Origin: an uncultured Candidatus Saccharibacteria bacterium
Lineage (GTDB): Bacteria; Patescibacteriota; Minisyncoccia; Phycocordibacterales; Phycocordibacteraceae
Assembly (NCBI GenBank): GCA_964371445.1
Contig: CAYJLK010000002.1
Location: 43,718 to 107,717, forward strand
Direction of reading: 5' to 3'
Length of the DNA: 64,000 nt
In this document: positions 16,253-62,663 of the stretch, piece by piece
Layout: each line of letters starts with the position of its first letter
How positions within the stretch are numbered: the stretch's first letter is position 1
Notes under the pieces: generated by a model
Told to the model about the DNA's origin: nothing
Database searches by the model: none
What the model saw: the letters and a program-made list of their open reading frames with translations, nothing else
Program-made: the position numbers and the translations under genes

Positions 16253-16660
16253 TTACTTCGGGCGCTTCGCACCGTAACGCGAACGCGAACGACGGCGCTT
16301 CTCGATGCCGCTCGTGTCGAGCTTGCCGCGTATAATGGTGTACTGCACGCCGATATCCTTCACGCGGCCGCCGCGAAGCATCACCACCGAGTGTTCCTGG
16401 AGGTTGTGCCCTTCGCCGGGGATGTAGGCCGTAACTTCCATCCCGTTCGTGAGGCGGACACGGGCGATCTTGCGGATAGCGGAGTTCGGCTTTCTCGGGG
16501 TCTTCGTCGTCACCTTGGTGCAGACGCCGCGCTTGAAGGGAGAGGGATAGAACGTCGGACGATTCGAGAGTGCATTAAAACCGCGAGCAAGCGCCGGCTT
16601 GCTCGTCTTCGACGATTTCGACTTGCGGCCCTTCTTGGAGAGCTGATTGATGGTAGACAT
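16253..16660 (-). CDS. rpsL: 30S ribosomal protein S12
   Basis: Trimmed to [17 protein letters not shown]... (ATG at 16660). The ORF-track upstream extension is Arg/Pro-rich read-through. Confidence 0.9.
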
Positions 16661-16730
16661 GTATTTGAAAACCCGCGAACGCGGGATAGAGGCACTATAT
16701 ATAATAGTGCGACAGAACGCAACTCCGACG

Positions 16731-17525
16731 CTAGTGGTCAATAGGTTCGCGGTATGGATCAACGCTATAGGGTTTGGCCGGAGCGGGGGGCTCTGCGGGA
16801 GTCGAAGGGACGGTCTTCGGCGAAGCCGATGATTCGACTTTGGGAACGACCACGAAAGGGGCGCGGGCTCCGGCGGGGATAGGGCGCGGCTGAATCGGCG
16901 CGGCTTTCGGAATGTGAGGTTCGACCTTGGGTAATATGGGCGAAGGTCGAACCTCGGGGACCGCGACCGATGGCATCGCACCTGGAAGATTCGCCTGCGG
17001 CGCAGGAGGCATTGACGCCTGCTTAAACTCGATATGCGGCTCTTCATGGTCCTCGAGCATCCTGTTATTCGGCGTCATCGTGACGGCGGCCAGCACATCT
17101 CGCAGAGCGGGTCGTTTGCTCACTCCAGCGGGAATCTTATTTTCCAAATGAAAATGGCTCGGAGGCTGCACAGCCGGCTGAGGCGCATTCCCCATACCAT
17201 TCTTCCTCTCTTCTTCCTGCAGCGGAACAAAAATCTGACTATTCACGTCCCGCACGATACCGTTAATAACTTGTTGGCCGAGTTGAGCTTCATCGGTGAG
17301 CACTTTAATGAATTCGTCGGGGTTCTCGATGCCCATCAGGAGCAGCATAATCTCCCGCTCGAGCACTCCCGCCTGATCGATGCGGAGCGCGTACTTCGCC
17401 ATCAATCCCCGCGCGACCACCGTATACTTCCCTTGTACAAGGTACGCGCGTATCACCGGCGGCAAGGTCTGCATCACCTGCTTGATGCTTTCTTCGAGTG
17501 TCAGTTCCGATTGGTCTTGGTTCAT
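16731..17525 (-). CDS. hypothetical protein with a structured N-domain and Pro-rich C-terminal tail
   Basis: 264 aa. The C-term [46 protein letters not shown] is Pro-rich. Co-oriented with and 7 nt downstream of the 720-aa gene, 70 nt upstream of rpsL. Confidence 0.55.
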
Positions 17526-17532
17526 AGTTTAA

Positions 17533-19695
17533 TTAGTGCGCGCCTTCGGGCTTCGGCGGCTCCTCTTTCTTTTCCTCTACTGGTTTCTCGCTTCCAGATT
17601 TCTCTTCAACATCTTCCAGTTCTTTCGCCATTTTTTTCGCTGCATCGAGGAACTTATCTTTGGTCGGTTTTTCTTTCAAAGATTCCTTAATCTTCCGTGC
17701 CGCAGCTGAGCTATCGGGGCCGTAGGTGATAAAGGTCACCGGATTAAGCGGGATGCTAATACCCTCAGCATAGGCAGTCTTGCTCGCCTTTATTGCACCA
17801 CTCAACCTGTCTTTTGGAGCTTTTTCTGCCGCCTCGTTCGCCTTCTTTGCACTAGTTTCTGCGACTGCAGCAGCTTCGAGGTCTTTTGCGGCCGCACCAA
17901 GTTTCGAAGTCACTGTAGCAAAGTTCGTCTTAACCAATTCGAGATTCTGTTGTGCCGCCCGAAGAGCAGAACCGACACTCGAGGGTCGCCCAGCGGTTCT
18001 ATCGGCCTTGTCTATAGCTGAAAGTCGTGCAACTTCGGCTTCGTTCCGTCTCATCACCACCTCCGCAGCGTCATACTCTTGCCGCGTCTTATTCTTTAAT
18101 CCCTCGGCTGTTCCTTTCGCCCTTGTCGCATCTTCGAGCGTCTTTTTCGCTTGCGCAATGCTTGTCAACTCAGACGAAGTCTCTCGGTGAGCGTCTTTGT
18201 GGGCAGTTTCAATATACTTCGCTTCCTCTTCATGCGCCTTGATGTTCTTGTTGCGGGCTTCTACGAAACCTCCCTTCTGCGCCTCTCCAGCTTCAATGCC
18301 GCCGCCGGGGAACTTCTTCAGCGCACCCGACCCGCGTATATCAAAGCTCCCTGTTGCAACATGATCGAGAGTTCCTGTCATCACGCGGCCTGTGAGCGCG
18401 TTTACCTTGTTGAACGTCTTGCTCTGCCTCAATCCACGAGAAGCAAAATATGCGCCTCGTCCGAGAGTCCGGTTCACTCCCCACGCGGTGGCACCGAAGG
18501 TGAGCGCCCCGGCGCTCTTCGACGCCCAGCCGGCGCCGGCGGCAGAGAGCTTCTTCGAGAAGAGGACGACGGCGAGCAGGAGCCCCATCGCGACGAAGAA
18601 GGAGAGCATCATGCTCGCGAAGCCGGCGAAGTTCCCTGACACGTAACCAAGCCAATTCGAGGAACAGGAAGTGTTCGTGGAACCCGCAGACGGTTGACAG
18701 AGGCCGGTGAGAAAATTGACGTCCGTGATGACGGCGAGCGCGATATAGAGCGTGAGGAGCAGGACGGGCGCAGTGATGGTCTGCTCGGCGAGCTCGCTCC
18801 ACCACTTCTTCGCCTGAGCTTCGAGCTTGGGCACGGCGAGCCCCGCGAAGCCGACCGGCGAGAGAATGATGAGGAAGATGAGCACAACAAACCGCGCAAT
18901 AAGAATGAAGGCGAGCGAGAACATCACGAACGCGGTGATGATAAAGAGCAGGATGCCCATGAAGCCGATGATCCAGGAATTCCCGGCCTTGAATACCGAT
19001 GTGTTCGTCCTTACATCATAAAGAGTCTGGAGTCCGAGCTGACCCATGATCTTGTTGCTGATCCCCTCACTTGAGGGAGACATGCTGTTCATGTCTTGAG
19101 GGGTCGGTAGCTTGCCGCCGTTAATCTGCGTATAGAATTGTGTCGCGAAGAGGTTGCCAGTGTCGATAATTGCTTCAGATATAAAAAGGGAAAAATTGAG
19201 GAAGACTGCGGCGATGAGCATCATGGGGATCATCTTCTTCCCCCATCCGTAGAGGTCGTAATTGATGATTGTCGCGATGCCGGCGAAGAGGAAGCCGAAG
19301 ATGAGCATGATGTTCCCGATGTCGCGAAGGATGCGCCAGGTGACACCAATGGCGGAGAGGTTATTCACATAGTCCCCCATCGTGACGACGGTGTAGTAGA
19401 CCGCGTAGTTGAGGGTGACGGCCGCGACGCCGACGAGCCACGCGAAGAGGCTCATGATCCAGATCATCACCTGGCTGAACCCTTCGCTGTTGTCGGGGTT
19501 CTTCGGCAAGTCGGTTGCTGTCTTTGCGGCTTCTGCGAATCCGCTGACTGCGGCCTGATTAGCTTGTTGTTCAGTAAGGGGGCTGTCGACCAGGGCTTCG
19601 AACTGCGCATGCGCGGCGGGCGCTAATGCGCCCGCCGTCATGACGAGCGAGAGAGCGGCGAATGAAATAAGAAAGAAATGTCGCATATCAGCCAC
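17533..19695 (-). CDS. polytopic membrane protein, VirB6/TrbL-like architecture: signal peptide, about 6 TM helices, long coiled-coil C-terminal domain
   Basis: 720 aa. N-term signal MADMRHFFLISFAALSLVMTAGALAPAAHAQ, multiple hydrophobic helices over aa 70-420, then about 250 aa Lys/Glu/Ala-rich coiled coil (KNIKAHEEEAKYIETAHKDAHRE...). The family call rests on architecture only. Confidence 0.6.
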   Translation of the reverse strand: MADMRHFFLISFAALSLVMTAGALAPAAHAQFEALVDSPLTEQQANQAAVSGFAEAAKTATDLPKNPDNSEGFSQVMIWIMSLFAWLVGVAAVTLNYAVYYTVVTMGDYVNNLSAIGVTWRILRDIGNIMLIFGFLFAGIATIINYDLYGWGKKMIPMMLIAAVFLNFSLFISEAIIDTGNLFATQFYTQINGGKLPTPQDMNSMSPSSEGISNKIMGQLGLQTLYDVRTNTSVFKAGNSWIIGFMGILLFIITAFVMFSLAFILIARFVVLIFLIILSPVGFAGLAVPKLEAQAKKWWSELAEQTITAPVLLLTLYIALAVITDVNFLTGLCQPSAGSTNTSCSSNWLGYVSGNFAGFASMMLSFFVAMGLLLAVVLFSKKLSAAGAGWASKSAGALTFGATAWGVNRTLGRGAYFASRGLRQSKTFNKVNALTGRVMTGTLDHVATGSFDIRGSGALKKFPGGGIEAGEAQKGGFVEARNKNIKAHEEEAKYIETAHKDAHRETSSELTSIAQAKKTLEDATRAKGTAEGLKNKTRQEYDAAEVVMRRNEAEVARLSAIDKADRTAGRPSSVGSALRAAQQNLELVKTNFATVTSKLGAAAKDLEAAAVAETSAKKANEAAEKAPKDRLSGAIKASKTAYAEGISIPLNPVTFITYGPDSSAAARKIKESLKEKPTKDKFLDAAKKMAKELEDVEEKSGSEKPVEEKKEEPPKPEGAH

Positions 19696-21475
19696 CGGTA
19701 GCCTGAACTACATATAAGGATGAGTTTGGATTACAGACCGTCGTCTTGAGTGCCGCCGCATTCGTCGTGATGAGAATCATCCGATCAAGGATCGACCCTC
19801 CTGAGACAGTGAGGGAGCCCGCCGGAGCGGCATCGGCAATCCCAAACGCCTCCGCCTCTTGCTGAGCGTTCCCGACATCCGTCATAGTTGGCGCCATTGC
19901 CTGGAGCGCCTGCACATCGGCAATATATGCATCTCCCTTCGGATCGACACCCGAGTTCAATTCGGCTTGGACCTTCTGCACCGCCGCACGTGCAGCGGCG
20001 ATAATCACATCTGCTGCCGCCGCTTGTGAGAAGACCGAGGCGATCTCGCCCGTAGACGCGAGCGCCGCCTTCGCCGTCACCGCCTGCGCCCGCGCAGCAT
20101 CGATAAAGACGGTGTGGACGCTGTTCAAGTCTGTCCCCGACCAGAGTCGATTGCCGAATTCGTCAACCGCATTTAGCGCATCGCGTGCGGCAGTATCGGC
20201 GGCGGCAGTGCAGTAGTTCGCGAGAGAGACGACGCTCGTCGAAGCAGTCTCTGCCGATGTCTGTAACGAGTTCCACGCCGATTCATACTGCGTGATGCGG
20301 CTTGTCAGATCAGAACCGGATATCGGAGAACTTGCGGCGGTCTGATAAATAGAAGCGTTCGAGGCTCCGAGAGAACCCGACGCCCTCTCATATTCCATAA
20401 GCCGGGAGGTCGAGTTCGACCCGGCAGGTTGGTCGATGCCGAAGAGTCCTCCTGACTCCGAACCACCGAGAATCTCTACCGCGAAATTCACGGTCTTCAT
20501 GACCGTTGCGATATTTCCCAAGATGCTATTAATCTCGGGACCGACGTTGCCCATGCGCGTGATGATGTCCTGCTGGCCGCCGAGTATTTTATTAAGGGTT
20601 CCCACGATGACCGAACCAGGGGTCTTGATGGTGCCCTGCGTGCCGTCCTTGTTGGTGCAAGGGTCTCCGGGATTGACGCCCTCCATCGCCGTACCGTCAT
20701 TATCTTCGGTAGTGGTCTGGTCGCTGGCGCCGCACCATGAGGCGAAGCCCTGGCCCCAGCTCAATTCTGCGAGGCGCGCGCCGGTGGCGCCGCCGACGCC
20801 TGGTCCGACGAGATCCCCGAGCTTGCTCTGCGCGGCCGGATAGAGCGTATAGGGATTATTCTCCGTCCGCGTCGTGAGGGCGAACCATGCGGCTATGCCG
20901 CCTTGCGACCAATTCCCCGTGAGAAAACTCGGTCGGTACGAGGGCGTCGAGGCGGCGAGCGTATTCATATTTTCTGCCCAGAAGCCGGCGAGACTCGTCT
21001 TGGCGAGATAGTTGGTGCGGAGCGAAGAGGCAATCGAAGAGGCGAATGGCGAATTCGAATTCCGCCCGAATTGGTCGAAGAATCCGAGCGCCCGCGCATC
21101 TCCCACCGTCTGCAGAGACTTCTGCACATCCACTACAAATTGCGGAATGCCGGTGCCGTTTGCCTTGCCGATGACGAAATTTATAATGCCGGCAGTGAGC
21201 ATCTTCATCAGGTTCCCCGAGAGGACAAAGGCGAGCGGCTGGAGCACATAGGCATTGATCTGTTGGGCAGTCGTCGCCCACGCAGTGGTGGCAGTATTTA
21301 CCGAGGTGAGCGTGCTCTTAAGCGCGGTGATGGTACTCTGAAACAGATTCTTCCCGACCTCTACGACCGCGTACTGTGCATGCACTCTCTGCGGTAAAAC
21401 AAGAAATGCCGAAGGCGCGATGAGTGTGACCGTGAGGAGTATTGCGAGTGCAGAAGAGAAGAAGCGCGGCATCAT
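19688..21475 (-). CDS. secreted Ser/Thr/Ala-rich protein
   Basis: 595 aa with a signal peptide (MMPRFFSSALAILLTVTLIAPSAFLVLPQRVHAQ). No known domain. Overlaps neighbours by 8 and 4 nt, which points to an operon. Confidence 0.7.
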   Translation of the reverse strand: MMPRFFSSALAILLTVTLIAPSAFLVLPQRVHAQYAVVEVGKNLFQSTITALKSTLTSVNTATTAWATTAQQINAYVLQPLAFVLSGNLMKMLTAGIINFVIGKANGTGIPQFVVDVQKSLQTVGDARALGFFDQFGRNSNSPFASSIASSLRTNYLAKTSLAGFWAENMNTLAASTPSYRPSFLTGNWSQGGIAAWFALTTRTENNPYTLYPAAQSKLGDLVGPGVGGATGARLAELSWGQGFASWCGASDQTTTEDNDGTAMEGVNPGDPCTNKDGTQGTIKTPGSVIVGTLNKILGGQQDIITRMGNVGPEINSILGNIATVMKTVNFAVEILGGSESGGLFGIDQPAGSNSTSRLMEYERASGSLGASNASIYQTAASSPISGSDLTSRITQYESAWNSLQTSAETASTSVVSLANYCTAAADTAARDALNAVDEFGNRLWSGTDLNSVHTVFIDAARAQAVTAKAALASTGEIASVFSQAAAADVIIAAARAAVQKVQAELNSGVDPKGDAYIADVQALQAMAPTMTDVGNAQQEAEAFGIADAAPAGSLTVSGGSILDRMILITTNAAALKTTVCNPNSSLYVVQATGG

Positions 21476-22491
21476 GGTTTTGTGGGCGTGATGTCCGCGA
21501 TGAGGTTCACGAACGAGGCTCCCGGCGTCTTATCGGGGAGCGTGACGCCCGCCGCCGCATATATCCTACCGATATTCGTGAATGCCGTTCCGAGTGCGAT
21601 TACCGCCCTTGGATACTGATCGAGCGCGAGCATCGTCGCGAGCGGATCGGTATCGGCACGCGTGAAATCGGTCGCTATCTGGCTCATGCGCATGAGTGCA
21701 TTGACCAGCGTGAGCGCATCGGCGGCGAGCTCCTTGGGCACCGGCAACACGGCGAGACCGACCGCAGAATCCCGATACGCCTTCGCTATCGAAGCGATGT
21801 GCGGATATGCCGTAGTATCGCCGTTGAGGAGAGCACTCTTCAGATAATTAATCTCGCTCGTCGTCGCATTACTCGTATTCTTCAGGAGTACCGCTTCAGC
21901 GCTCACCGCAAATGTCTTGAGCGCATCGGCACCGAAGCCAGAAACCGCAAGGTCTTTTGCGGATCGGTAATCGGGGGCGATGGCGATGGTCGACTTGAGC
22001 GATTCGAGAGCCTGACCGGAGATGGCAACCATCTCGCTTTCAGACAGATTCGCCCCGCCCTTCGCTTCCTTCGCCGCCAGATAGATCGTGAAGAAATTTC
22101 TCGCGAAGGCGGCAGTCAAGGTCCCTTCTGCGGGCGGCGGCGGGAGCGAGCCGTCGAGGCTCATAGGAGAGGAGGAGGCCGTGACGGCAATATCGGCAAT
22201 CGCTTTCGGTACGATCAGACCCTTGGTGACAGCGGCGCCGTCGGTCATGCCGAGACGGAACGTATCGGTCATATGCGAATCGGTCCCGTAGAGCGCCTCT
22301 TCCCAATCAGGGAGACCGTCGCCGTCGGTATCTCGTGTCGCGATCGCTTGGAGAAGCTCTGTTTCAGTAGAAGCCTGAGCGGTCGAAGGAGACTCGACGC
22401 TCTTCGCGAGCATATAGGCGCCAATGACCAAAACCGCTGAGAAGAGCGATGCGGCTACGATTCGCCAATGTGGAAGCAGTCTTTCCCCCAT
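21472..22491 (-). CDS. N-terminally anchored extracytoplasmic protein with a DTDGDGLPDWEE Ca-binding-like motif
   Basis: 339 aa with one N-terminal TM (IVAASLFSAVLVIGAYML). Carries a thrombospondin-type-3 / DxDxDG-like motif. Confidence 0.7.
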   Translation of the reverse strand: MGERLLPHWRIVAASLFSAVLVIGAYMLAKSVESPSTAQASTETELLQAIATRDTDGDGLPDWEEALYGTDSHMTDTFRLGMTDGAAVTKGLIVPKAIADIAVTASSSPMSLDGSLPPPPAEGTLTAAFARNFFTIYLAAKEAKGGANLSESEMVAISGQALESLKSTIAIAPDYRSAKDLAVSGFGADALKTFAVSAEAVLLKNTSNATTSEINYLKSALLNGDTTAYPHIASIAKAYRDSAVGLAVLPVPKELAADALTLVNALMRMSQIATDFTRADTDPLATMLALDQYPRAVIALGTAFTNIGRIYAAAGVTLPDKTPGASFVNLIADITPTKP

Positions 22492-22575
22492 AGTATCGCT
22501 TTAAAGTATAGCAGTCGTGCCGGAGAGAGATAGTGTCTGTATAGGTATAAAGGTGCACTACGGCACCGGCGCATG

Positions 22576-23346
22576 TCAGACGTTCGCCAGAGTGAGCCAG
22601 TCGGAAAGGGAGAGGTCCTCGGCGCGCGCCTTTTCCGGGATATTCCCCTGCGACAGACCTGCTTCTGCAAGATTCTTCCGCACGAATTTCCGCTTGTGGG
22701 CGAACCCGGCGTGCAGAAGCACGAAAAATATCTCTTCTTGAGCCTTTGACGCGAAGCGCCGACGCGAGATACCGCGGATAGAAAGCACTGCCGAGTCTAC
22801 CTTCGGTGCGGGCAGAAATGCGCCGCGCTTGACCGTGAATTCGTATGTCGGTTCGCCATACGCCTTCACCGAGAGCGAGAGGATGCTTTCTTTCTTCGAA
22901 CGGGTGATACGCTCGGCGACTTCTTTCTGCACGAGGAGCGTCATTGCGCTCGGCTGGTTCGATGTCTCGAGGAACATGCGAAATATTTCTCCTGTCAGGT
23001 AGTACGGGATGTTCGCGACAAGCGCGTATCCTTTCGGGAGCGAAGAAATGTCGAACGTGCGGATGTCACCGTGCAGCAACTCTAATCTCCCCCTCGCGCG
23101 CTCATCTGCGAAGTCGCTCTCTAATGTTTCAAAAAGTCCCTGGTCTGCCTCAAGCGCGATCACCTTTCGCGATAGCTTCAAGAGCTCGCGCGTGAGCATC
23201 CCCGTTCCGGGCCCTATCTCGAACACAACTGCGTCCGGAGAGAGGCCCGCGACAAGCGCGATGCGCTCGGCAATGCGCGCATGCATCAGGAAATTTTGTC
23301 CGAGCGATTTTCTCGCCTTGAACGCCGTTGAAGGGTTAGCCCGCAT
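22576..23346 (-). CDS. rsmA: 16S rRNA (adenine1518/1519-N6)-dimethyltransferase
   Basis: 256 aa with an SAM-binding FEIGPGTGMLT motif and KsgA/Dim1 family sequence. Confidence 0.88.
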   Translation of the reverse strand: MRANPSTAFKARKSLGQNFLMHARIAERIALVAGLSPDAVVFEIGPGTGMLTRELLKLSRKVIALEADQGLFETLESDFADERARGRLELLHGDIRTFDISSLPKGYALVANIPYYLTGEIFRMFLETSNQPSAMTLLVQKEVAERITRSKKESILSLSVKAYGEPTYEFTVKRGAFLPAPKVDSAVLSIRGISRRRFASKAQEEIFFVLLHAGFAHKRKFVRKNLAEAGLSQGNIPEKARAEDLSLSDWLTLANV

Positions 23347-25819: not shown

Positions 25820-26833
25820 GTGTTCCTGCCAGATCGCGTGAACGCCTTCTGGCCGTTTTCTACAAATGCGGATGCCGCCATCGGCACCTTCATGCCGGGA
25901 TCTTCGACGCCAGCGCTCCAAGCGTCCGTCAATATTGATCCGAATCCGAACAAAGGTCTCGGCGACAACATTCAGACAACCGGGGGTCGGGCGCTCCTCG
26001 CAAGCGCCGGTCCTTCCGGCACTATCGCGGACGTCGCGGGCGCAACGGCTCCCGACCACATTTCGGTATACGTCGTCCGTCGGGGCGACACGCTCTCCGA
26101 TATCGCAACCATGTTCGGGGTCTCGGTAAATACCATCATTTGGGCGAACAACCTCTCCGGCGTACGGGATGTCCATCCGGGCGACACTCTTATCATCCTG
26201 CCGATTTCCGGCGTCGAGCGCACCATCGTAAAGGGCGATACGCTCAAATCTATTGCGAAAAAGTACGGCGCCGATGCAAACGAAATAGCTCAGTACAACG
26301 GTCTTGATCCTGCAGAGCCGCTTGCTATCGGTTCAACGGTCATTATCCCCGGCGGCGAAGTCGCTCCGGCGGCTTCAGTCGCCCCCAAGGGCTCCGCTCC
26401 GCGCAAGATTAAGAGCGAACCGTACCTCGGCGGAAGCGGCTCCGCCCAACCCGGTTACTACACGAATCCCGTGCCGGGCAGCATCTTTACCCAGGGTATC
26501 CACGGATGGAACGGCATCGACTTCGGTGCGGCGCGCGGCACACCGATCCATGCCGCGGCGGCCGGTACGGTCATCATCGCGCGCAATAACGGCGGGTGGA
26601 ACGGCGCCTACGGGAACTATGTCGTTATCACGCACGATAACGGCACCCAGACGCTCTACTCACACATGCGGAGCGCCATCGTGTCTCCAGGACAGTTCGT
26701 CTCGTCGGGCCAGGTTATCGGCTATGTCGGATCAACCGGTCTCTCGACCGGTCCGCACCTCCACTTTGAAGTCCGCGGTGCCGCCAACCCTTTCCGTACG
26801 TGCTCAGTCGGTAGCGTCTGTGCTCCGCAATGA
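25820..26833 (+). CDS. LysM-domain M23 family metallopeptidase
   Basis: Two LysM repeats (GDTLSDIATMFGVSVNTIIWANNL, GDTLKSIAKKYGADANEIAQYNGL) plus an M23 core (HGWNGIDFGAARGTPIHAAAAGTV...GSTGLSTGPHLHFEVRG). GTG start; the in-frame upstream sequence encodes a hydrophobic segment. Confidence 0.85.
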   Translation: MFLPDRVNAFWPFSTNADAAIGTFMPGSSTPALQASVNIDPNPNKGLGDNIQTTGGRALLASAGPSGTIADVAGATAPDHISVYVVRRGDTLSDIATMFGVSVNTIIWANNLSGVRDVHPGDTLIILPISGVERTIVKGDTLKSIAKKYGADANEIAQYNGLDPAEPLAIGSTVIIPGGEVAPAASVAPKGSAPRKIKSEPYLGGSGSAQPGYYTNPVPGSIFTQGIHGWNGIDFGAARGTPIHAAAAGTVIIARNNGGWNGAYGNYVVITHDNGTQTLYSHMRSAIVSPGQFVSSGQVIGYVGSTGLSTGPHLHFEVRGAANPFRTCSVGSVCAPQ

Positions 26834-34897: not shown

Positions 34898-34969
34898 GCC
34901 CCCGTGGTGAAATGGATATCACTGCTGACTTCGGATCAGCCGTTCCGGGTTCGAATCCTGGCGAGGGCA
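34898..34969 (+). tRNA. tRNA-Arg (anticodon TCG), CCA not encoded
   Basis: Cloverleaf: acceptor GCCCCCG/CGAGGGC (1 mismatch), anticodon loop CTTCGGA with G37, T-arm CCGGG-TTCGAAT-CCTGG. Followed by caagc. Confidence 0.75.
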
Positions 34970-35014
34970 CAAGCACTGGAAAAATAAACAGGTGACGTGT
35001 TATCATGTCGCCAG

Positions 35015-35085
35015 CGCGGGTATGGTTCAATGGTAGAACATCTGGTTGCCAATCAGATGATGGGAGTTCGATTCTCCCTACCCGC
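35015..35085 (+). tRNA. tRNA-Gly (anticodon GCC), CCA not encoded
   Basis: Acceptor GCGGGTA/TACCCGC perfect, anticodon loop TTGCCAA, T-arm GGGAG-TTCGATT-CTCCC. Confidence 0.8.
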
Positions 35086-35096
35086 ACTGAGTAAGG

Positions 35097-35137
35097 CAAA
35101 AAGAGAAAGACCGACATTGCGTCGGTCTTTCTCTTTT
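35097..35137. terminator. strong bidirectional terminator after the tRNA pair
   Basis: aaaaagagaaagaccgac-attg-cgtcggtctttctcttttt: a 15-bp stem flanked by A- and T-runs. Confidence 0.7.
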
Positions 35138-35307
35138 TCGCCGCGCGAAGTGCGGGTATGGGCATTTCCATACACGCACGACCAAAATCGTGATTTCGAA
35201 ACGACTTTGGAGTTGTGTACAAACCTGTGCACACTGGGGATAAAGGACAGCAGACTTTTTAACAAGTCCGTGAAATAGTAAGGAAATGAGCCGTATTTCT
35301 AAAAGCC

Positions 35308-35703
35308 GTGAACATAGCATCTCTCACCAGTAAACAGGTCGGTAACCTAGGAGAGAGCGTCGCTTGCGAGTATCTCAAGCGGCACGGATTCTCGATTGTC
35401 GACCGCAATATCGCGCGAAAAACGGGCGAGCTCGACATCATCGCAAAGAAAGAAAATACGCTCCATTTCGTCGAAGTGAAGACGGTCCTCGTGCACAGAT
35501 TCCCCGACGAAAACGACTCGCACGATGTGTACGATCCCTCGCTCAACTTGCACGAAGCGAAGGTGTACAAGGTCGCCCGCACGGGAGAGTGGTATGTCCT
35601 TGAGAAAGGCTGGGAAGGGGAGTGGCAGGTCGACGGAATCCTCGTGTGGCTCCGCCGCGCTGACGGCATGACCCGCGTCTCCTACCTGCCGCAAATCGTC
35701 TAA
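35308..35703 (+). CDS. YraN/UPF0102 family endonuclease-like protein
   Basis: GESVACEYLKRHGFSIVDRNIARKTGELDIIA is the YraN signature. 131 aa. Confidence 0.75.
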   Translation: MNIASLTSKQVGNLGESVACEYLKRHGFSIVDRNIARKTGELDIIAKKENTLHFVEVKTVLVHRFPDENDSHDVYDPSLNLHEAKVYKVARTGEWYVLEKGWEGEWQVDGILVWLRRADGMTRVSYLPQIV

Positions 35704-35706
35704 TCA

Positions 35707-35777
35707 TCGGGCCGCCGAGAATTGAACTCGGTCTGCCTGCTCCCAAAGCAGGTGTACTACCGGCATACTCCGGCCCG
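35707..35777 (-). tRNA. tRNA-Pro (anticodon TGG), CCA not encoded
   Basis: Minus-strand cloverleaf: acceptor CGGGCCG/CGGCCCG, anticodon stem-loop CCTGC-TTTGGGA-GCAGG with G37, T-arm CCGAG-TTCAATT-CTCGG. Confidence 0.75.
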
Positions 35778-35797
35778 TTGTCCTCATCGTATCAGCT

Positions 35798-36928
35798 TTA
35801 TGGTAAATTCGCAGTCACTATCGCCTCGAGCGTCGGTATTTGGGGCGCGAAGTCGGCGGCGGCCGTCGGAGGCGATTTCGCAAAGAGGAGATCGAGCGCC
35901 TGTCCGGTCACGCCCGCATACGTCGCGCGGATATAGGAGGCAGTGACCGCGTCGAGCGAGCGTGTCTCGGTCGCACCCTCGACAGTGCTCGTCGTGATGG
36001 TAGCGACAAGCATCTCGGATGCGTCGGCGACGCCGCCACCCGAAGATCCTTCCTGCGCCGCCGCCGAACCGCCGAGTGAGAGCACGTCGATCGTATTTGT
36101 CTTAAACGTGAAGACTCCCTTTACCGAACCGAAGACAATGATAGGGAAGAGAGCGGATTGTATTTGGCTCGACTCGAGAAATTGTGCACCGTAGGAGGCG
36201 ATGACCACCGGCGTGCCGGCGGAAGGCGGCGTCTGCGCGAGTGATATGAAAGGGAATTCTGCCGGAAGCGCATCTCTGGTCGCACTCTTCGTGACGGCAA
36301 GAATCGCGAAATCATATTCGCCGGTTCCCGTCGGCGCCGCGAGCGTGAGCACATTTGCATTTTCTGAGAGCCATGCGGAGGGGATGTAGGCCAGCGCCGC
36401 ATCATAGCGGTCGGCGGCCGGACTGCCGGCGCGGATGGTGCAGTCGGCGCCGCGGTCGGCGAGGAGGAAATACTGCGCGATATGCGCATTGGTGAGGATG
36501 AACCCTTTTGCGTCGACGATGACGCCGCTACCGGAGATCGAGTGTAGACCGCTCCCCGCGGGCATATAACAGATGATGTTCACGAGCGCAGCACGAAGCG
36601 TCGAGGCAGCGCGATCAAGCGCTCCAGCATCGGGGACCGGAGCCGAAACGATAACGGGAGTCGGAGCGGGAGTCGGGACTGGCATCGACGCCGCCGGCGA
36701 GACGGTCTTCTCTGGAACAGACGCCTTCTGTTCCGCCGGCGCTAGTTGCGGTAACGTTATATCCGGCAAGACGAGATCGGGCAAGACTAAGAGCGTCGAA
36801 GACGCGGCTTGCAGATTCGTCTCGGCGACACGCACGACGGTCACGCTCCCGGAGAAAGCGACGATGAAGATGCCCAGGATGAGGGCGACGACAATTCCGA
36901 GATAGGGCGCTAGGCGCGACATGTTCAA
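35798..36928 (-). CDS. membrane-anchored trypsin-like serine protease
   Basis: N-terminal TM, a His motif GFILTNAHIA and a Ser motif GSSGGGV. No PDZ domain. Confidence 0.75.
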   Translation of the reverse strand: MNMSRLAPYLGIVVALILGIFIVAFSGSVTVVRVAETNLQAASSTLLVLPDLVLPDITLPQLAPAEQKASVPEKTVSPAASMPVPTPAPTPVIVSAPVPDAGALDRAASTLRAALVNIICYMPAGSGLHSISGSGVIVDAKGFILTNAHIAQYFLLADRGADCTIRAGSPAADRYDAALAYIPSAWLSENANVLTLAAPTGTGEYDFAILAVTKSATRDALPAEFPFISLAQTPPSAGTPVVIASYGAQFLESSQIQSALFPIIVFGSVKGVFTFKTNTIDVLSLGGSAAAQEGSSGGGVADASEMLVATITTSTVEGATETRSLDAVTASYIRATYAGVTGQALDLLFAKSPPTAAADFAPQIPTLEAIVTANLP

Positions 36929-36960
36929 AGGCTAACCCAAAAATGGTATTCTCACCACAC

Positions 36961-37034
36961 GCGGGATTAGTTTAATGGTAGAACATCAGTTTTCCAAACT
37001 GATAGCACCGGTCCGATTCCGGTATCCCGCACCA
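36961..37034 (+). tRNA. tRNA-Gly (anticodon TCC), CCA encoded
   Basis: Acceptor GCGGGAT/ATCCCGC perfect, anticodon loop TTTCCAA, ends ...GCACCA. Confidence 0.8.
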
Positions 37035-43414: not shown

Positions 43415-43511
43415 TCAGATAGTTGCAAGTATACCAGATACGCTTCGCACGTCAATAATGTGTGCAATGAGCGTTTTGCCCATAGCAGAGCGCGCTATAC
43501 TTATCCGTAAT

Positions 43512-58089: not shown

Positions 58090-58524
58090 ATGGAATACCA
58101 GGTGCCGCAGTTCATTGAAGTCGAGGACAAGATCATCGGTCCTTTGACCTTGAAACAATTCATCTATATCGCCGGAGCAAGCGGACTCTGCATCGTTTTC
58201 TTCGTCTATTTACCCATCATCGTCGCCCTCCTCCTCGCGGCGCCGGTGGCAGGGCTCGCAGCGGCACTCTCGTTTTATAAGATGAACGGGAAACCGTTCA
58301 TCGAGGTGCTCGAGGCCGGATTCAGTTATTACACGCGGGGGAAACTCTTCCTCTGGAAACATCAGGACCAAAAGGTCCAGGAAGAGAGCGTCGCGGATAC
58401 GGCCGCCGCGGAGATTCCGTCGCCGCGCGCCACGCCGAAGCTCACGCGCGGGAAGCTCTCGGAGCTTGCGTGGTCGCTCGACGTACAGAAGGCGGGCGGC
58501 AATGCCGAGAACAAGAATCCCTGA
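58090..58524 (+). CDS. PrgI-family / VirB3-like small membrane protein of monoderm-type T4SS
   Basis: MEYQVPQFIEVEDKIIGPLTLKQFIYIAG followed by two TM helices. Immediately upstream of the VirB4 N-domain ORF. Confidence 0.6.
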   Translation: MEYQVPQFIEVEDKIIGPLTLKQFIYIAGASGLCIVFFVYLPIIVALLLAAPVAGLAAALSFYKMNGKPFIEVLEAGFSYYTRGKLFLWKHQDQKVQEESVADTAAAEIPSPRATPKLTRGKLSELAWSLDVQKAGGNAENKNP

Positions 58525-58525
58525 T

Positions 58526-59161
58526 ATGGCGGTACCCTCAGCAAGCGCAACCCAGCAGTTCGTTCCGGTGAAGGAGATCCGGAACGGCATCATTATCCTC
58601 AAAGACGGCGGCTACCGCGGCGTGCTTATCTGTTCCTCGATCAACTTCGGACTCAAGTCGGCCGATGAACAGCACGCGATCACGCTCGGCTTCCAGAATT
58701 TCCTCAATACGCTCGACTTCTCGATACAGATTGTTATCAATTCGCGCCGGATGGACCTGCGTCCCTACCTCGCGCTCCTGGGAGAAAAGTCCGCCGAACA
58801 AAAGACAGAGTTGATGCGGATCCAACTTCGCGAGTATATCGAATTCGTCCGCTCCTTCACCGACCAGGCGAATATCATGACGAAATCTTTTTACGTCGTC
58901 GTCTCATACACGCCGCATGTCAGCGCCGCGAGCGCGACCAGCTTCCTGCGGCGCGAGAATGCCGCGGTGAAGAGCGCCGCTGCCGAGACTTCTTTCGAAG
59001 AAGATCGGGCTCAGCTCGAACAAAGGCTCACACTCGTCGCCGCCGGTCTTGCAGGCACCGGCGTTCGCGCGGTCCCGCTCGGTACTGAAGAGGTCATCGA
59101 ACTGTTGTATCGTTCATTTAATCCGGGCGAACTTGAGAACCCTATCAGGCTCGATAATTAA
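58526..59161 (+). CDS. VirB4/TraE-family N-terminal domain as a separate ORF
   Basis: QQFVPVKEIRNGIIILKDGGYRGVLICSSINFGLKSADEQHAITLGFQNFLNTLDFSIQIVINSRR matches the N-terminus of Gram-positive-type VirB4. Ends 4 nt before the ATPase ORF, in a different frame. Confidence 0.7.
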   Translation: MAVPSASATQQFVPVKEIRNGIIILKDGGYRGVLICSSINFGLKSADEQHAITLGFQNFLNTLDFSIQIVINSRRMDLRPYLALLGEKSAEQKTELMRIQLREYIEFVRSFTDQANIMTKSFYVVVSYTPHVSAASATSFLRRENAAVKSAAAETSFEEDRAQLEQRLTLVAAGLAGTGVRAVPLGTEEVIELLYRSFNPGELENPIRLDN

Positions 59162-59165
59162 ACGT

Positions 59166-60992
59166 ATGGCACTCCTCGACTTTCTCAATCGTAAAAAAGA
59201 AGAAGAAGAAGAAGCGCCGGCGGTCATGCCGGTCTTGCCGAGAGACATCTACCGGCAGGGAGCGCTGAGCCTCGTTGACACTATCGCTCCGACGGCGCTG
59301 AAGATCAGCTCGCGCGAGCTCGAACTCGGAGAAAAATTCGTCCGCGCTTTTTACACTATCTCGTATCCTCGTTTCCTCTCCGACAGCTGGTTCTCGCCCA
59401 TCATCAATCTCGACAAAGTGCTTGATGTCTCTCTCTTCATCCACCCGGTAGAGACCGAACAGGCCCTGCGCGGCTTCCAGAAGAAGGTTGCCGAGGTCCA
59501 GAGCCAGATTAACGAGCGCGAAGCGAAGGGATTGGTGCGCGATCCGCTGCTTGATACGGCGTACCAAGATCTCGAGAGCCTGCGCGATAGCCTCCAGCAG
59601 GCGCAGGAAAAGCTCTTCGATGTCGGCCTCTACCTCGCGCTCTACGGCGACACGAAGGAGGAGATCGACCGGACCGAAGGCGATATCCGCGGTATCCTCG
59701 ACGCAAAGCTCGTCTATACGAAGCCGGCGTTGTTCCAACAGGAGCAGGGGTTCCGCTCATGCCTGCCCTTGGGTAGCGACGAGCTCCTCGTCAATTCGAA
59801 GTTGAATTCATCGCCGCTTTCTTCGATATTCCCGTTCGTTTCTTTCGACCTGACGAGCGACCGCGGCATCCTCTACGGCATCAACCGACACAATTCTTCG
59901 CTTATTCTCTTCGACCGCTTCTCGCTCGAGAACTACAATTCCGTCGTGTTTGCAAAGTCCGGTTCCGGCAAAAGCTACGCGACGAAGCTCGAGATCCTGC
60001 GCTCCCTGATGTTCGGCACCGACGTCATCGTCATCGATCCCGAACGCGAATACGAACAGCTCGCCGAAGCGACGGGCGGACGCTCATTCCACATCTCGCT
60101 CTCTTCCGAGCATCATATCAATCCGTTCGATCTCCCGCCGGTCAAGGAAGACGAGGATCCGAAGGATGTCCTGCGCTCCAACATCATCGCGCTTGTCGGA
60201 CTCTTCCGCATCATGCTCTCGGGACTCTCTCCCGAAGAAGACGCGATCATCGACCGCGCCATAAGTGAAACGTACGCGCTCAAAGACATCACCGGCGATT
60301 CCGACTTTACCGGCGCCGAACCGCCGCTGCTCTCCGATTTCGAACAGGTGCTCTCCGGCATGGAGGGAAGCGAATCGCTGGTCGAGCGCCTCTCGAAATA
60401 TACTCGCGGGTCGTGGTCGGGATTCCTTAATCAGCCAACCAACATCGACCTGAAACAGCAGTTCGCCGTCTTCTCGGTGCGCGATATGGAGGACGAGCTG
60501 AAACCAGTCGCGATGTATATCGTCACGCACTACATCTGGAATGCGGTACGGCACGAGATGAAGAAGCGGCTCCTTATCATCGACGAGGCGTGGTGGATGA
60601 TGAAGAGCGACGACACCGCCTCCTTCCTCTACTCGCTTGCGAAGCGCGGAAGAAAATATTATCTGGGCGTCTGTACCATCACGCAGGATGTCGAGGACTT
60701 CTTGAAGAGCCCGTACGGTCGGCCGATCCTTACCAACTCCTCTATCCAGTTATTGTTGAAACAGTCGCCGACGACCATCGACGTGCTCCAACAGACCTTC
60801 AATCTTACCGATGAGGAAAAATATCTTCTGCTCGAGGCTGGCGTCGGGGAAGGGCTCTTCTTTGCAGGATTGAAGCATGTCGCCATCAAGGTCGTCGCGA
60901 GCTATACCGAGGACCAGATTATTACCTCTGATCCTTCCCAGCTGATCGCCATTAAGCAAGAGAAGGATCGGTATGCCGCAGAAAAGAAATAG
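59166..60992 (+). CDS. VirB4/TraE-family conjugative ATPase (central and C-terminal domains)
   Basis: Walker A FAKSGSGKSY, Walker B LLIIDEAWWMM, FYTISYPRFLSDSWFSPIINL region. 609 aa. Confidence 0.85.
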   Translation: MALLDFLNRKKEEEEEAPAVMPVLPRDIYRQGALSLVDTIAPTALKISSRELELGEKFVRAFYTISYPRFLSDSWFSPIINLDKVLDVSLFIHPVETEQALRGFQKKVAEVQSQINEREAKGLVRDPLLDTAYQDLESLRDSLQQAQEKLFDVGLYLALYGDTKEEIDRTEGDIRGILDAKLVYTKPALFQQEQGFRSCLPLGSDELLVNSKLNSSPLSSIFPFVSFDLTSDRGILYGINRHNSSLILFDRFSLENYNSVVFAKSGSGKSYATKLEILRSLMFGTDVIVIDPEREYEQLAEATGGRSFHISLSSEHHINPFDLPPVKEDEDPKDVLRSNIIALVGLFRIMLSGLSPEEDAIIDRAISETYALKDITGDSDFTGAEPPLLSDFEQVLSGMEGSESLVERLSKYTRGSWSGFLNQPTNIDLKQQFAVFSVRDMEDELKPVAMYIVTHYIWNAVRHEMKKRLLIIDEAWWMMKSDDTASFLYSLAKRGRKYYLGVCTITQDVEDFLKSPYGRPILTNSSIQLLLKQSPTTIDVLQQTFNLTDEEKYLLLEAGVGEGLFFAGLKHVAIKVVASYTEDQIITSDPSQLIAIKQEKDRYAAEKK

Positions 60993-61635
60993 CGCCGAGC
61001 CACCGAAGGTGATGACCTGGGGAAAGGCAGCACCGATTCTTGCTGTGTGTGTCATCTTCGACGCGCTGCGCCTCATGTTCGAAATGTTCTGGTTCTTCGG
61101 ACCGGCGATGGCCGCCCTCTACTGCACCGTTAAGGTGAGCGGGGTGGTCGGAACGACCTTGGGAGGATTTGCCTGCGGTGTCGGCGCTACGGTGGCGGGA
61201 ACCCTCGGAGCTCCCGCCATAGAGGTTTTCGGCGTCGTGATGGCGATAGCTGTCGGACTCTTCGGATGGCTCGTCATCGGACTCTGGCTCATGGTAACGA
61301 ACGCGCGCATTTTCAAAGAGAATGCCGCCTGGTTTGCCGGTAGTCTCCTCATAAGCGAGATACCTATTGTCGGTTCGATACCCGCACTTACCATCATCGT
61401 CTGGAAAATGTACCGCACGCAAATCACGCTAGAAAAAGCCGAGATGCAGCGCTATGAACAGGAGCGAGCCGCTGCCGAACGGCAGGAGCGCGAACAACGA
61501 ATCGCCCTCGTACTCCACAACCAATCACTGCAACAAGCGCAGATCGAGCAGGAAGAGGCGGCGGACGATGCGCTCTCTGCCGAAGCCGCAAATGATGATG
61601 AATATATCCCCCAAAAGATGAGAGAGGCGGCGTGA
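60973..61635 (+). CDS. polytopic membrane protein with coiled-coil C-terminal tail (VirB6-like candidate)
   Basis: 4-5 TM helices then QRYEQERAAAERQEREQRIALVLHNQSLQQAQIEQEE. A GAGAAGGA SD precedes the ATG at 60973. Overlaps the VirB4 end. Confidence 0.55.
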   Translation: MPQKRNSAEPPKVMTWGKAAPILAVCVIFDALRLMFEMFWFFGPAMAALYCTVKVSGVVGTTLGGFACGVGATVAGTLGAPAIEVFGVVMAIAVGLFGWLVIGLWLMVTNARIFKENAAWFAGSLLISEIPIVGSIPALTIIVWKMYRTQITLEKAEMQRYEQERAAAERQEREQRIALVLHNQSLQQAQIEQEEAADDALSAEAANDDEYIPQKMREAA

Positions 61636-62663
61636 CCTCTTGCAAGAGGCGCTATACTAGACGCATGCGTTCTGGTCTCCTCACCATTCTCACTGCCGCC
61701 CTCATGCTCCCCGGTATAGCTGCCGCCCAGGTGTTTGCCGACCTGGGAATAAGCGACACCGCGTCCTTCAATCTCTCCGCCATTCCTCAGTACCCGGTGC
61801 CCTACGGCAAGGTGTCCCTCTCCTTCCTTTCAGGTTCTATCGAGCTAACGAGCGCGACCTTGACCGTTTCCGCAAACGGAAAAGACATATACCGAGGCTC
61901 GGTACAGCCGGTCTCTGTCACGCTCGGAAAGGCGGGGAGCGTAACAAATGTGACGGCGATTATATCTGCCGGCGGCGAGAAATACACTCAGACACTCCGC
62001 ATCCAACCCCAAGACGTCGCGCTCATCGCCGAACCGATCTCCTTCGCGCCCCCGCTCTATCCCGGGAAACCGCTCGTACCACTCGACGGGACTGTGCGCG
62101 TCGTCGCTATGGCGAATCTGAAAAATGTCAGCGGAAAGTCGCTCGACCCCGCGACACTCTCCTACGCATGGGTCGTCGACAACATGCAGATCGCAAACTC
62201 CTCGGGCATCGGCAAGACGGCAATCATGGTCGCCTCGCCGCTTCAGTACCGCAGTCGCGATGTTGCGGTCTCGGTCATGAGCGCCGACGGGAGCCACGTC
62301 GGGGGCGCATCGCTCTCGCTCTCGTCCCTCGAGCCTTCGATACGCCTCTATGAAAATGACCCCTTGCTCGGCATTCGTTTCAACCGCGCCCTTTCGGGCG
62401 CATACTCCATCATGAACGCCGAGTCTTCGCTCTATGCCGCTCCATTTTCGCTCCCGACCCAGCGTGGAGCGCCGCTTATCCAGTGGTTCTTAAACGGAGA
62501 ACCAGCACAGACTGGCGGCTCCATAACCCTGCGACCGACGGGAAGCGGGCAGGGGAGCGCCTCGCTCTCGCTCACTGCCTCCTCAGGGGAGTATGCAAAG
62601 GCGACTGCGAACCTCTCCCTCAAGTTCGGTGAAAAACCCGAATTTAATTTCTTCGGATTATGA
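61632..62663 (+). CDS. secreted protein, hypothetical (T4SS-cluster associated)
   Basis: Signal peptide MRSGLLTILTAALMLPGIAAAQ from Met12 (61665), then a Ser/Thr/Ala-rich beta-type domain. The stop TGA overlaps the next ATG (ATGA). Confidence 0.6.
   Translation: MTSCKRRYTRRMRSGLLTILTAALMLPGIAAAQVFADLGISDTASFNLSAIPQYPVPYGKVSLSFLSGSIELTSATLTVSANGKDIYRGSVQPVSVTLGKAGSVTNVTAIISAGGEKYTQTLRIQPQDVALIAEPISFAPPLYPGKPLVPLDGTVRVVAMANLKNVSGKSLDPATLSYAWVVDNMQIANSSGIGKTAIMVASPLQYRSRDVAVSVMSADGSHVGGASLSLSSLEPSIRLYENDPLLGIRFNRALSGAYSIMNAESSLYAAPFSLPTQRGAPLIQWFLNGEPAQTGGSITLRPTGSGQGSASLSLTASSGEYAKATANLSLKFGEKPEFNFFGL

Follow-up and report, generated by a model that had tools for sequence, protein, structure and literature searches.

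Why does a tightly packed row of four genes, among them genes for membrane and secreted proteins, sit directly in front of rpsL, the first gene of a ribosomal-protein operon? The question is raised by a 64,000-nucleotide stretch of DNA (the window) from an uncultured bacterium deposited as Candidatus Saccharibacteria (contig CAYJLK010000002.1, positions 43,718 to 107,717). The four genes are on the minus strand and are called here g339, g595, g720 and g264, after the lengths of their products. A first-pass annotation, made from the sequence alone, regarded them as a module fused to the str operon (rpsL-rpsG-fusA). Comparison with related genomes points to a different answer. The four genes most probably form one operon for the membrane and surface half, including the VirB6 component, of a chromosomal type IV secretion system (T4SS) of the kind known from ultrasmall CPR/Patescibacteria. 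This system resembles monoderm conjugation machinery, and the operon has a predicted promoter of its own, separate from that of rpsL.

The module and its immediate neighbours are as follows; the four packed, co-oriented genes lie 70 nt from rpsL, just as first described.

22491..21472, minus strand: g339, 339 aa; first gene of the module
21475..19688, minus strand: g595, 595 aa; overlaps g339 by 4 nt
19695..17533, minus strand: g720, 720 aa; GTG start; 8-nt overlap with g595 as listed
17525..16731, minus strand: g264, 264 aa; 7-nt gap after g720; last gene of the module
16730..16661, minus strand: spacer between g264 and rpsL, 70 nt
16253..16660, minus strand: rpsL (ribosomal protein S12), ATG at 16660; first gene of the str operon; Pfam Ribosom_S12_S23 on orthologues
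23346..22576, upstream of the module: rsmA/ksgA (RrnaAD E 1.3e-42)

Beyond the spacer the order is rpsL-rpsG-fusA, followed by tuf. A UvrD-type helicase gene and a divergent LysM-M23 peptidase gene are also found upstream of the module. The true start of g720 is probably the ATG at 19686, because Met-4 of the 720-aa open reading frame (ORF) is nearly invariant among orthologues (alignment A1). With this start, g595 and g720 would be separated by a 1-nt spacer rather than joined by an 8-nt overlap. The tight packing of the four genes is consistent with translational coupling.

The module and the core locus in related genomes

A profile of g720 was used to collect 80 species-level genome loci, and the window proteins were mapped onto them. 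A metagenome scan, seeded with the clade described below in which the module has a different neighbour, gave further contigs (about 70 in all). The four-gene arrangement is not a chance ORF pattern, since orthologues occur in the same order in all of these genomes and metagenome contigs. The usual order in genomes is uvrD-rsmA-(occasional extra gene)-g339-g595-g720-g264-rpsL-rpsG-fusA-tuf, and about 45 of the metagenome contigs are also of this rpsL type.

There are exceptions. In three genomes (L069, L074 and L079), rsmA-g339-g595-g720-g264 runs on into prgI-trsD-virB4-...-343aa-pilin, with a gap of no more than about 20-30 nt after g264. Four metagenome contigs (L083, L100, L118 and L142) are also of this contiguous type, with g264 adjoining prgI; all ten genes stand in an unbroken row in L100, and g720-g264-prgI is seen in L118 and L142. 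In contiguous-type loci, g264 thus lies between the VirB6-like gene (g720) and prgI. In a midpoint-rooted neighbour-joining tree of g339, the three genomes with this layout group together as a clade of their own. A contiguous layout with rpsL placed after the pilin gene was considered and rejected; there is no rpsL in the remaining flank of L100 or L069.

The genes that follow g264 in these relatives are present in the window as a separate core locus at 58.1-63.5 kb.

58090..58524, plus strand: PrgI family (VirB3-like), first gene of the core locus; PF12666 E 3.5e-9, 37.5 bits against a gathering score (GA) of 27
58466..59161, plus strand: TrsD-like, resembles the VirB4 N-terminal region; weak TraC_F_IV match; position between prgI and virB4
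59049..60992, plus strand: VirB4-type T4SS ATPase; P-loop_TraG E 1.4e-26, AAA_10, DUF87
60973..61635, plus strand: 220-aa membrane protein, after virB4; 3 transmembrane (TM) segments and a Glu/Gln/Ala-rich tail
61632..62663, plus strand: 343-aa secreted protein; same-position orthologues in L069, L074, L083 and L100
62660..63544, plus strand: VirB2-like T4SS pilin with a long C-terminal extension; T4SS_pilin E 2.3e-8, 34.4 bits against GA 26.6; TrbC/VirB2 E 1.2e-5

The chromosome represented by the window carries a VirB4 ATPase, a PrgI/VirB3 protein and a VirB2-like pilin; the core locus is otherwise without a VirB6 candidate. Orthologues of virB4 are 85-92% identical and lie downstream of trsD in the contiguous loci. 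A TrsD gene between prgI and virB4 has been described for Patescibacteria (PMC12102498). In the window, the module and the core locus are 37 kb apart. On the evidence of gene order, the module of four genes and the core of six each make up half of a single T4SS cluster, because relatives have prgI-trsD-virB4-...-pilin directly after g264; one clade has the cluster in one piece, and the window lineage has it in two. The layouts part exactly behind g264, which shows the four genes behaving as one unit. Products of both loci would go into the machine.

The ORFs listed at 58466-59161 and 59049-60992 overlap their neighbours by 59 and 113 nt. Likelier starts, judging by spacing, are the ATG at 58526 for the trsD-like gene (right after the prgI stop) and the ATG at 59166 for virB4 (4 nt after the trsD-like stop). 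These starts would make prgI-trsD-virB4 a tightly packed operon.

The 220-aa gene at 60973 had at first been paired with g720 as a VirB6-like paralogue. No homology is detectable: BLASTP gives E 0.14 over 20 residues, the hhalign probability is 4.7%, and there are three TM segments rather than about seven. Weak orthologues of the 220-aa protein (26-28% identity) are found at the same place after virB4 in L083 and L100. On comparative grounds it is a conserved T4SS-linked gene, though not a VirB6 paralogue.

T4SS genes normally belong to mobile elements, and here the system is divided over two loci. Both facts could be explained if the genes were remnants of an integrated conjugative element, with transfer genes scattered by rearrangement. 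However, the position of the module between rsmA and rpsL is identical in more than 60 species, its base composition is the same as that of its flanks, and there is no integrase or relaxase among the window ORFs scanned (the scan was not exhaustive). Patescibacteria T4SSs are also chromosomal, largely relaxase-free and vertically conserved (PMC12102498). An origin as a scattered element is hardly credible.

The module proteins

Hydropathy analysis of g720 gives a signal-like N-terminal segment and about seven TM segments between residues 76 and 379, followed by an Ala/Lys/Glu-rich C-terminal tail of 250 aa. Apart from the TM count, which had been put at about six, this is the polytopic layout with signal peptide and tail originally reported. 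There are more than 500 homologues; all are from Paceibacteria/Kaiserbacteria/Minisyncoccota and all are annotated as hypothetical. The window is accordingly assigned to a CPR (Patescibacteria) genome of Paceibacteria/Kaiserbacteria type. Direct scans of the window protein give no Pfam or NCBIfam match. When 50 orthologues are scanned singly, TrbL (PF04610) is matched by 11 of them (E <= 0.05), all below the gathering score; the best match has E 2.2e-5 and 24.8 bits against a GA of 25.9. In one orthologue (P0066), residues 160-377 align to model positions 24-214 of 215, which is nearly the full length. PF04610 is the sole family matched repeatedly among the 50 members; TrbL_4 is matched in two. 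A sequence profile search of PDB with the g720 family returns only coiled-coil noise from the C-terminal tail.

An AlphaFold2 model of g720, built from the family alignment, has a mean pLDDT of 73.5, with about 75-87 in the TM domain and more than 90 in the coiled coil. The model contains long helices, and the C-terminal 250 aa form an antiparallel coiled coil. In a Foldseek search of PDB, TrwI/VirB6 chains of the R388 T4SS are found at ranks 2, 3, 11, 12 and 14; probabilities are 0.66-0.97, with E-values of just 0.16-0.76. These chains are the only recurrent membrane-protein matches in the search, and two structure-comparison methods agree in ranking TrwI/VirB6 first among membrane proteins. 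Of the features used here to recognise a VirB6 protein, g720 has the fold of the solved TrwI of R388, at least five TM helices and, in relatives, linkage to VirB3 and VirB4 genes, but no family match at the gathering score. A TM core with a large hydrophilic C-terminal domain is called "extended VirB6" in a recent review (PMC12857230); g720 is a probable extended VirB6/TrbL-like polytopic membrane protein. The first-pass annotation had proposed a VirB6/TrbL-like identity, and the recurrence of PF04610, the TrwI/VirB6 fold match and the linkage to prgI-trsD-virB4 in relatives all support it. The protein would be a VirB6-type channel subunit, with its long C-terminal coiled coil probably in the cytoplasm.

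Alternatively, the module might have nothing to do with type IV secretion and encode some other complex of the envelope or surface. The VirB6 likeness would then be generic to helical polytopic proteins, and the linkage to virB4 a coincidence. The lack of a significant direct match to a hidden Markov model (HMM), Foldseek E-values above 0.1, three partner proteins without T4SS homology, and the distance of tens of kb between the module and virB4 in most genomes are all compatible with this. However, generic likeness does not easily account for TrbL as the sole recurrent family with its model covered nearly full-length, or for TrwI/VirB6 as the leading membrane-protein match by both structural methods. 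The core locus also offers no other candidate for VirB6. In monoderm conjugation systems of the pCF10 type, the gene order is prgH (VirB6-like)-prgI (VirB3)-prgJ (VirB4); the contiguous order VirB6-like ... PrgI-(TrsD)-VirB4 runs parallel to it. A complex unrelated to type IV secretion is thus very unlikely.

The partner proteins are less easily placed. Pfam and NCBIfam scans of the four module proteins find TSP3 in g339 alone, and g339, g595 and g264 have no recognisable relative outside the clade. Hydropathy shows one N-terminal hydrophobic segment each in g339 and g595. The motif noted earlier in g339 (DTDGDGLPDWEE) is present and corresponds to a bacterial TSP3 repeat (Pfam TSP3_bac, E 2e-5); TSP3_bac is matched in 35 of 55 g339 orthologues. 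The protein is predicted to be bitopic and exposed at the surface: it is anchored by its N-terminus and has a single TSP3-type Ca-binding repeat, and its C-terminal domain is conserved. Its gene is always the first of the module. The g339 family profile has no PDB match and no Pfam match besides TSP3. A VirB8/PrgL-type protein combines an N-terminal TM anchor with an NTF2-like domain; the anchor is present in g339.

The hydrophobic segment of g595 agrees with the Sec signal first proposed for it. Encoded directly before g720, the protein is predicted to be secreted and mostly alpha-helical. Its AlphaFold2 model (pLDDT 64) is confident only at residues ~390-590, a helical bundle; the profile search of PDB gives no match, and the Foldseek search of PDB with this model is uninformative. 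One of 55 g595 orthologues (P0180) matches DUF4141 at 29.4 bits, below the GA of 30, and the match extends no further than the signal peptide and the N-terminal ~50 residues. DUF4141 genes adjoin traJ (VirB6-like) in Bacteroides conjugative transposons. Homology of g595 to VirB5/TraC/TrwJ or to DUF4141 was considered and not accepted; its position is no more than a lead towards a VirB5/TraI-like role.

No TM segment is found in g264 by hydropathy, and its C-terminal half is Pro-rich, as had been noted. Alignment A3 shows a conserved N-domain of ~105 aa, a variable Pro-rich linker, and the invariant residues D256 P257 Y258 R259 E260. This C-terminus (16731-16760) resembles a docking peptide: DPYRE is invariant in 54 orthologues despite the hypervariable linker, and it occurs nowhere else in the six-frame translation of the window. 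Neither the Pfam scan nor the PDB search with the family profile gives a match for g264, which is predicted to be cytoplasmic. In most loci its start is 2-32 nt after the VirB6-like gene.

Within the proposed machine, g339 (membrane-anchored, with its Ca-binding repeat) and g595 (secreted and helical) would be extracellular partners, and g264, which carries the invariant DPYRE peptide in its C-terminal part, would be a partner on the cytoplasmic side. VirB8-like and VirB5/adhesin-like homologues are reported to be missing or rare in Patescibacteria. A tentative suggestion, somewhat short of an even chance, is that the three proteins are undescribed structural parts of the T4SS with VirB8-like and VirB5/adhesin-like roles, and that g264 acts through DPYRE as a cytoplasmic adaptor or is a secreted substrate. 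It would include low-level read-through allowed by the adjacency to rpsL, coupling part of the machine to growth rate.

Promoters and the link to rpsL

The adjacency itself remains to be explained. One possibility is that the module extends the str operon on its 5' side and shares a transcript with rpsL-rpsG-fusA, which would tie the envelope proteins to ribosome synthesis. The genes are on the same strand with a gap of only 70 nt. Whether the module is always beside rpsL had been left to a synteny check, and the answer is mixed: the adjacency is kept in 62 of the 65 genome loci that reach far enough, and in about 45 metagenome contigs, whereas the contiguous-type clade has prgI-virB4 in its place. 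In the 62 genome loci, the distance between the stop codon of g264 and the ATG of rpsL has a median of ~73 nt; 49 loci do not exceed 154 nt, and the other 13 have gaps of 247-1158 nt.

The following transcription signals are predicted in and around the module.

16694..16722, minus strand: rpsL promoter of sigma70-type consensus; -35 TTGCGT at 16722-16717, 17-nt spacer, -10 TATAGT at 16699-16694
16668..16685, minus strand: GC hairpin and T-run, between the rpsL -10 and the ATG; CCCGC-GTTC-GCGGG at 16685-16672, TTTT at 16671-16668
22505..22513, minus strand: module promoter, extended -10 (TGCTATACT); 13 nt before the g339 ATG

A generic promoter scan missed both promoters because TTGCGT and the extended -10 are outside its rule; comparative alignment revealed them. 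The conserved form of the rpsL promoter is TTGCRT-17-TATA(G/T)T; the promoter pattern has two matches in the window against 0.07 expected. In an alignment of 61 orthologous spacers (A5), the TTGC of the -35 (TTGCAT or TTGCGT) and the T..TA..T of the -10 are invariant. The hairpin has 5 bp (RNAfold -9 kcal/mol, z -2.3). In the hairpin alignment 84% of cells are paired, the outer pair covaries between GC (31) and AU (22), and none of 500 shuffles reaches the observed score; longer stem variants are found in L030, L064 and L076. About 10 A/T-rich nt separate the T-run from the rpsL ATG in the spacer alignment. In the long-gap loci (up to ~1160 nt), promoter and hairpin stay immediately upstream of rpsL, and therefore belong to rpsL. 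From its sequence, the hairpin with its T-run would either act like a terminator on transcripts arriving from upstream or form a stem-loop at the 5' end of the rpsL mRNA.

The predicted rpsL mRNA would start with this conserved GC stem-loop and U-run, and no Shine-Dalgarno sequence is seen before the ATG. The stem-loop is kept across more than 60 species despite differing stem registers; it might stabilise the 5' end, act in attenuation or block read-through. Four loci (L021:5980-6116, L033:5411-5555, L050:10914-11063 and L051:10710-10867) have an extra GC-rich, apparently structured segment of ~70-90 nt between the hairpin and the rpsL ATG (e.g. CCGAGCGAGCCGAGCGACAAAGCATGTCTTCATGC). Rfam gives no match in the rpsL leader of the window or in these longer leaders.

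At the other end of the module, nearly all of 64 orthologous loci have TG(C/G)TATACT 9-14 nt upstream of the g339 start codon. Many relatives have an opposite-strand gene between rsmA and g339, so a promoter before g339 is required. The g339 mRNA should be leaderless or nearly so, because there are just 13 nt from the -10 hexamer to the ATG; this short spacing is conserved across the clade. Transcription of the module would start at its own extended -10, and that of rpsL at the separate promoter within the 70-nt spacer. Immediately downstream of the rpsL promoter, the hairpin and T-run may prevent or lower read-through from the module.

These signals bear directly on the str-operon explanation. 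The first-pass annotation held that an rpsL promoter or terminator between 16661 and 16730, with the module elsewhere in related genomes, would speak against functional fusion, and the spacer contains a TTGCGT-17-TATAGT promoter and a hairpin with T-run, which move with rpsL. The 13 loci with long gaps, and the related clade in which the module is joined to prgI-virB4 rather than to rpsL, are further evidence against functional fusion or co-transcription. The adjacency may just reflect general synteny, as the ~15-kb neighbourhood (uvrD, rsmA ... fusA, tuf) is collinear in the clade. On the other hand, a hairpin of just 5 bp (-9 kcal/mol) makes some read-through into rpsL plausible. Obligatory co-transcription is not supported by these elements, and the module is probably not an extension of the ribosomal-protein operon. 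The str-extension explanation as a whole is unlikely, though less so than the two considered above.

It should be noted that several points weigh against reading the module as a separately transcribed half of a T4SS. The sequence similarity of g720 to TrbL is below threshold in every orthologue matched and absent in the direct scans of the window protein. No T4SS coupling protein is seen in the window. Profile and Pfam searches, and for g595 a fold search as well, match g339, g595 and g264 to no known T4SS component; strict co-occurrence and gene order in ~150 contigs are what places them with the system. The hairpin sits downstream of the rpsL promoter, which is not the position of a textbook terminator for the module, and the promoter and terminator calls come from consensus and conservation, so that their activity is putative. 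The reading of the four genes as a T4SS operon with its own promoter nevertheless remains the preferred one.

Neighbouring genes and known systems

Other genes of the window belong to related processes. The LysM-LysM-Peptidase_M23 cell-wall hydrolase gene (25820-26833, plus strand) is divergent beside uvrD, and its position is conserved in related loci. The literature notes that VirB1-like proteins in Patescibacteria carry M23/LysM domains, so this hydrolase may serve the T4SS. The stretch that separates the module from the core locus has genes encoding a type IV pilus assembly ATPase (43236-45260, plus strand; T2SSE E 6e-126), RecJ (51599-53332, plus strand) and ComEC (54257-55777, plus strand); pilus, DNA-uptake and T4SS genes are concentrated in one stretch of ~45 kb. 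The window also encodes RNase Y and NusA, and four tRNA genes at 34898-37031 (three plus, one minus) surround a trypsin-like protease gene. Several metagenome-assembled genomes titled 'uncultured Candidatus Saccharibacteria bacterium' (L010, L015, L016, L023, L029 and others) have a Kaiserbacteria/Paceibacteria-type locus, with S12, S7 and EF-G 90-96% identical to those of the window; these automatic taxonomic labels look wrong.

Outside Saccharibacteria, knowledge of what these T4SSs consist of comes only from HMM surveys that start from virB4 as their centre. The present locus shows where the "missing" VirB6 is seated in a large Kaiserbacteria-type clade: beside ksgA/rsmA and usually far from virB4. 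The three always-linked orphan proteins are candidates for envelope-spanning parts of the T4SS. The locus also corrects an attractive but unsupported idea, namely that host-interaction genes are wired into a ribosomal-protein operon. The role of the system is probably host interaction rather than conjugation, by analogy with Saccharibacteria; T4SS genes are essential for epibiotic growth of a Saccharibacterium, the sole genetically tractable Patescibacterium, according to the summary in PMC12857230.

In pCF10-type systems, VirB6-like, PrgI and VirB4 ATPase genes come in the order shared by the contiguous-type relatives, in which g264 and the TrsD-like gene are inserted. A VirB2-like pilin is present here but lacking in the Gram-positive systems, and no relaxase or coupling-protein gene is seen in the locus among the ORFs scanned. 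Bacteroides conjugative transposons encode a secreted protein, TraI (DUF4141), beside the VirB6-like TraJ; g595 similarly lies directly before a VirB6-like gene but is about three times longer. With the VirB6/TrbL family (PF04610; TrwI of R388, PDB 7O3V/8RT9), g720 shares linkage to VirB3 and VirB4 genes. It differs in similarity under the Pfam thresholds, in a signal-peptide-like N-terminus, in a C-terminal domain made of a 250-aa Ala/Lys/Glu coiled coil, and in the lack of a recognisable VirB5 homologue beside it. A large hydrophilic C-terminal domain is found in the 'extended VirB6' proteins (PMC12857230), as in g720.

The closest known systems are those of the same phylum. Chromosomal, relaxase-poor T4SSs akin to monoderm conjugation machinery, together with VirB2-like pilins, occur across Patescibacteria and are described as MPF-FATA-like (Quinonero-Coronel et al. 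2025, PMC12102498); Patescibacteria T4SSs are also the subject of Wang et al. 2023, as cited in PMC12102498 and PMC12857230. The set PrgI/VirB3, TrsD, VirB4, VirB6 and VirB2-like pilin is the same in those systems and here. The window system is likewise chromosomal, with KsgA/rsmA beside the cluster; no relaxase is seen nearby among the ORFs scanned. KsgA is enriched within 20 genes of virB4 in Patescibacteria (PMC12102498), which fits the contiguous layout. The same survey, covering +/-20 genes around virB4, recorded 480 VirB6 homologues, a minority of genomes, and very few VirB8. In the window lineage, by contrast, the VirB6 gene is 37 kb from virB4, outside the +/-20 coding sequences of that study, and escapes direct HMM search. 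The three conserved orphan genes of the module are not described there, and adjacency to rpsL is not mentioned. The locus adds three points to the published description: its extended VirB6 is divergent and missed by HMMs, the gene for it usually lies apart from virB4, and three conserved orphan partners accompany it.

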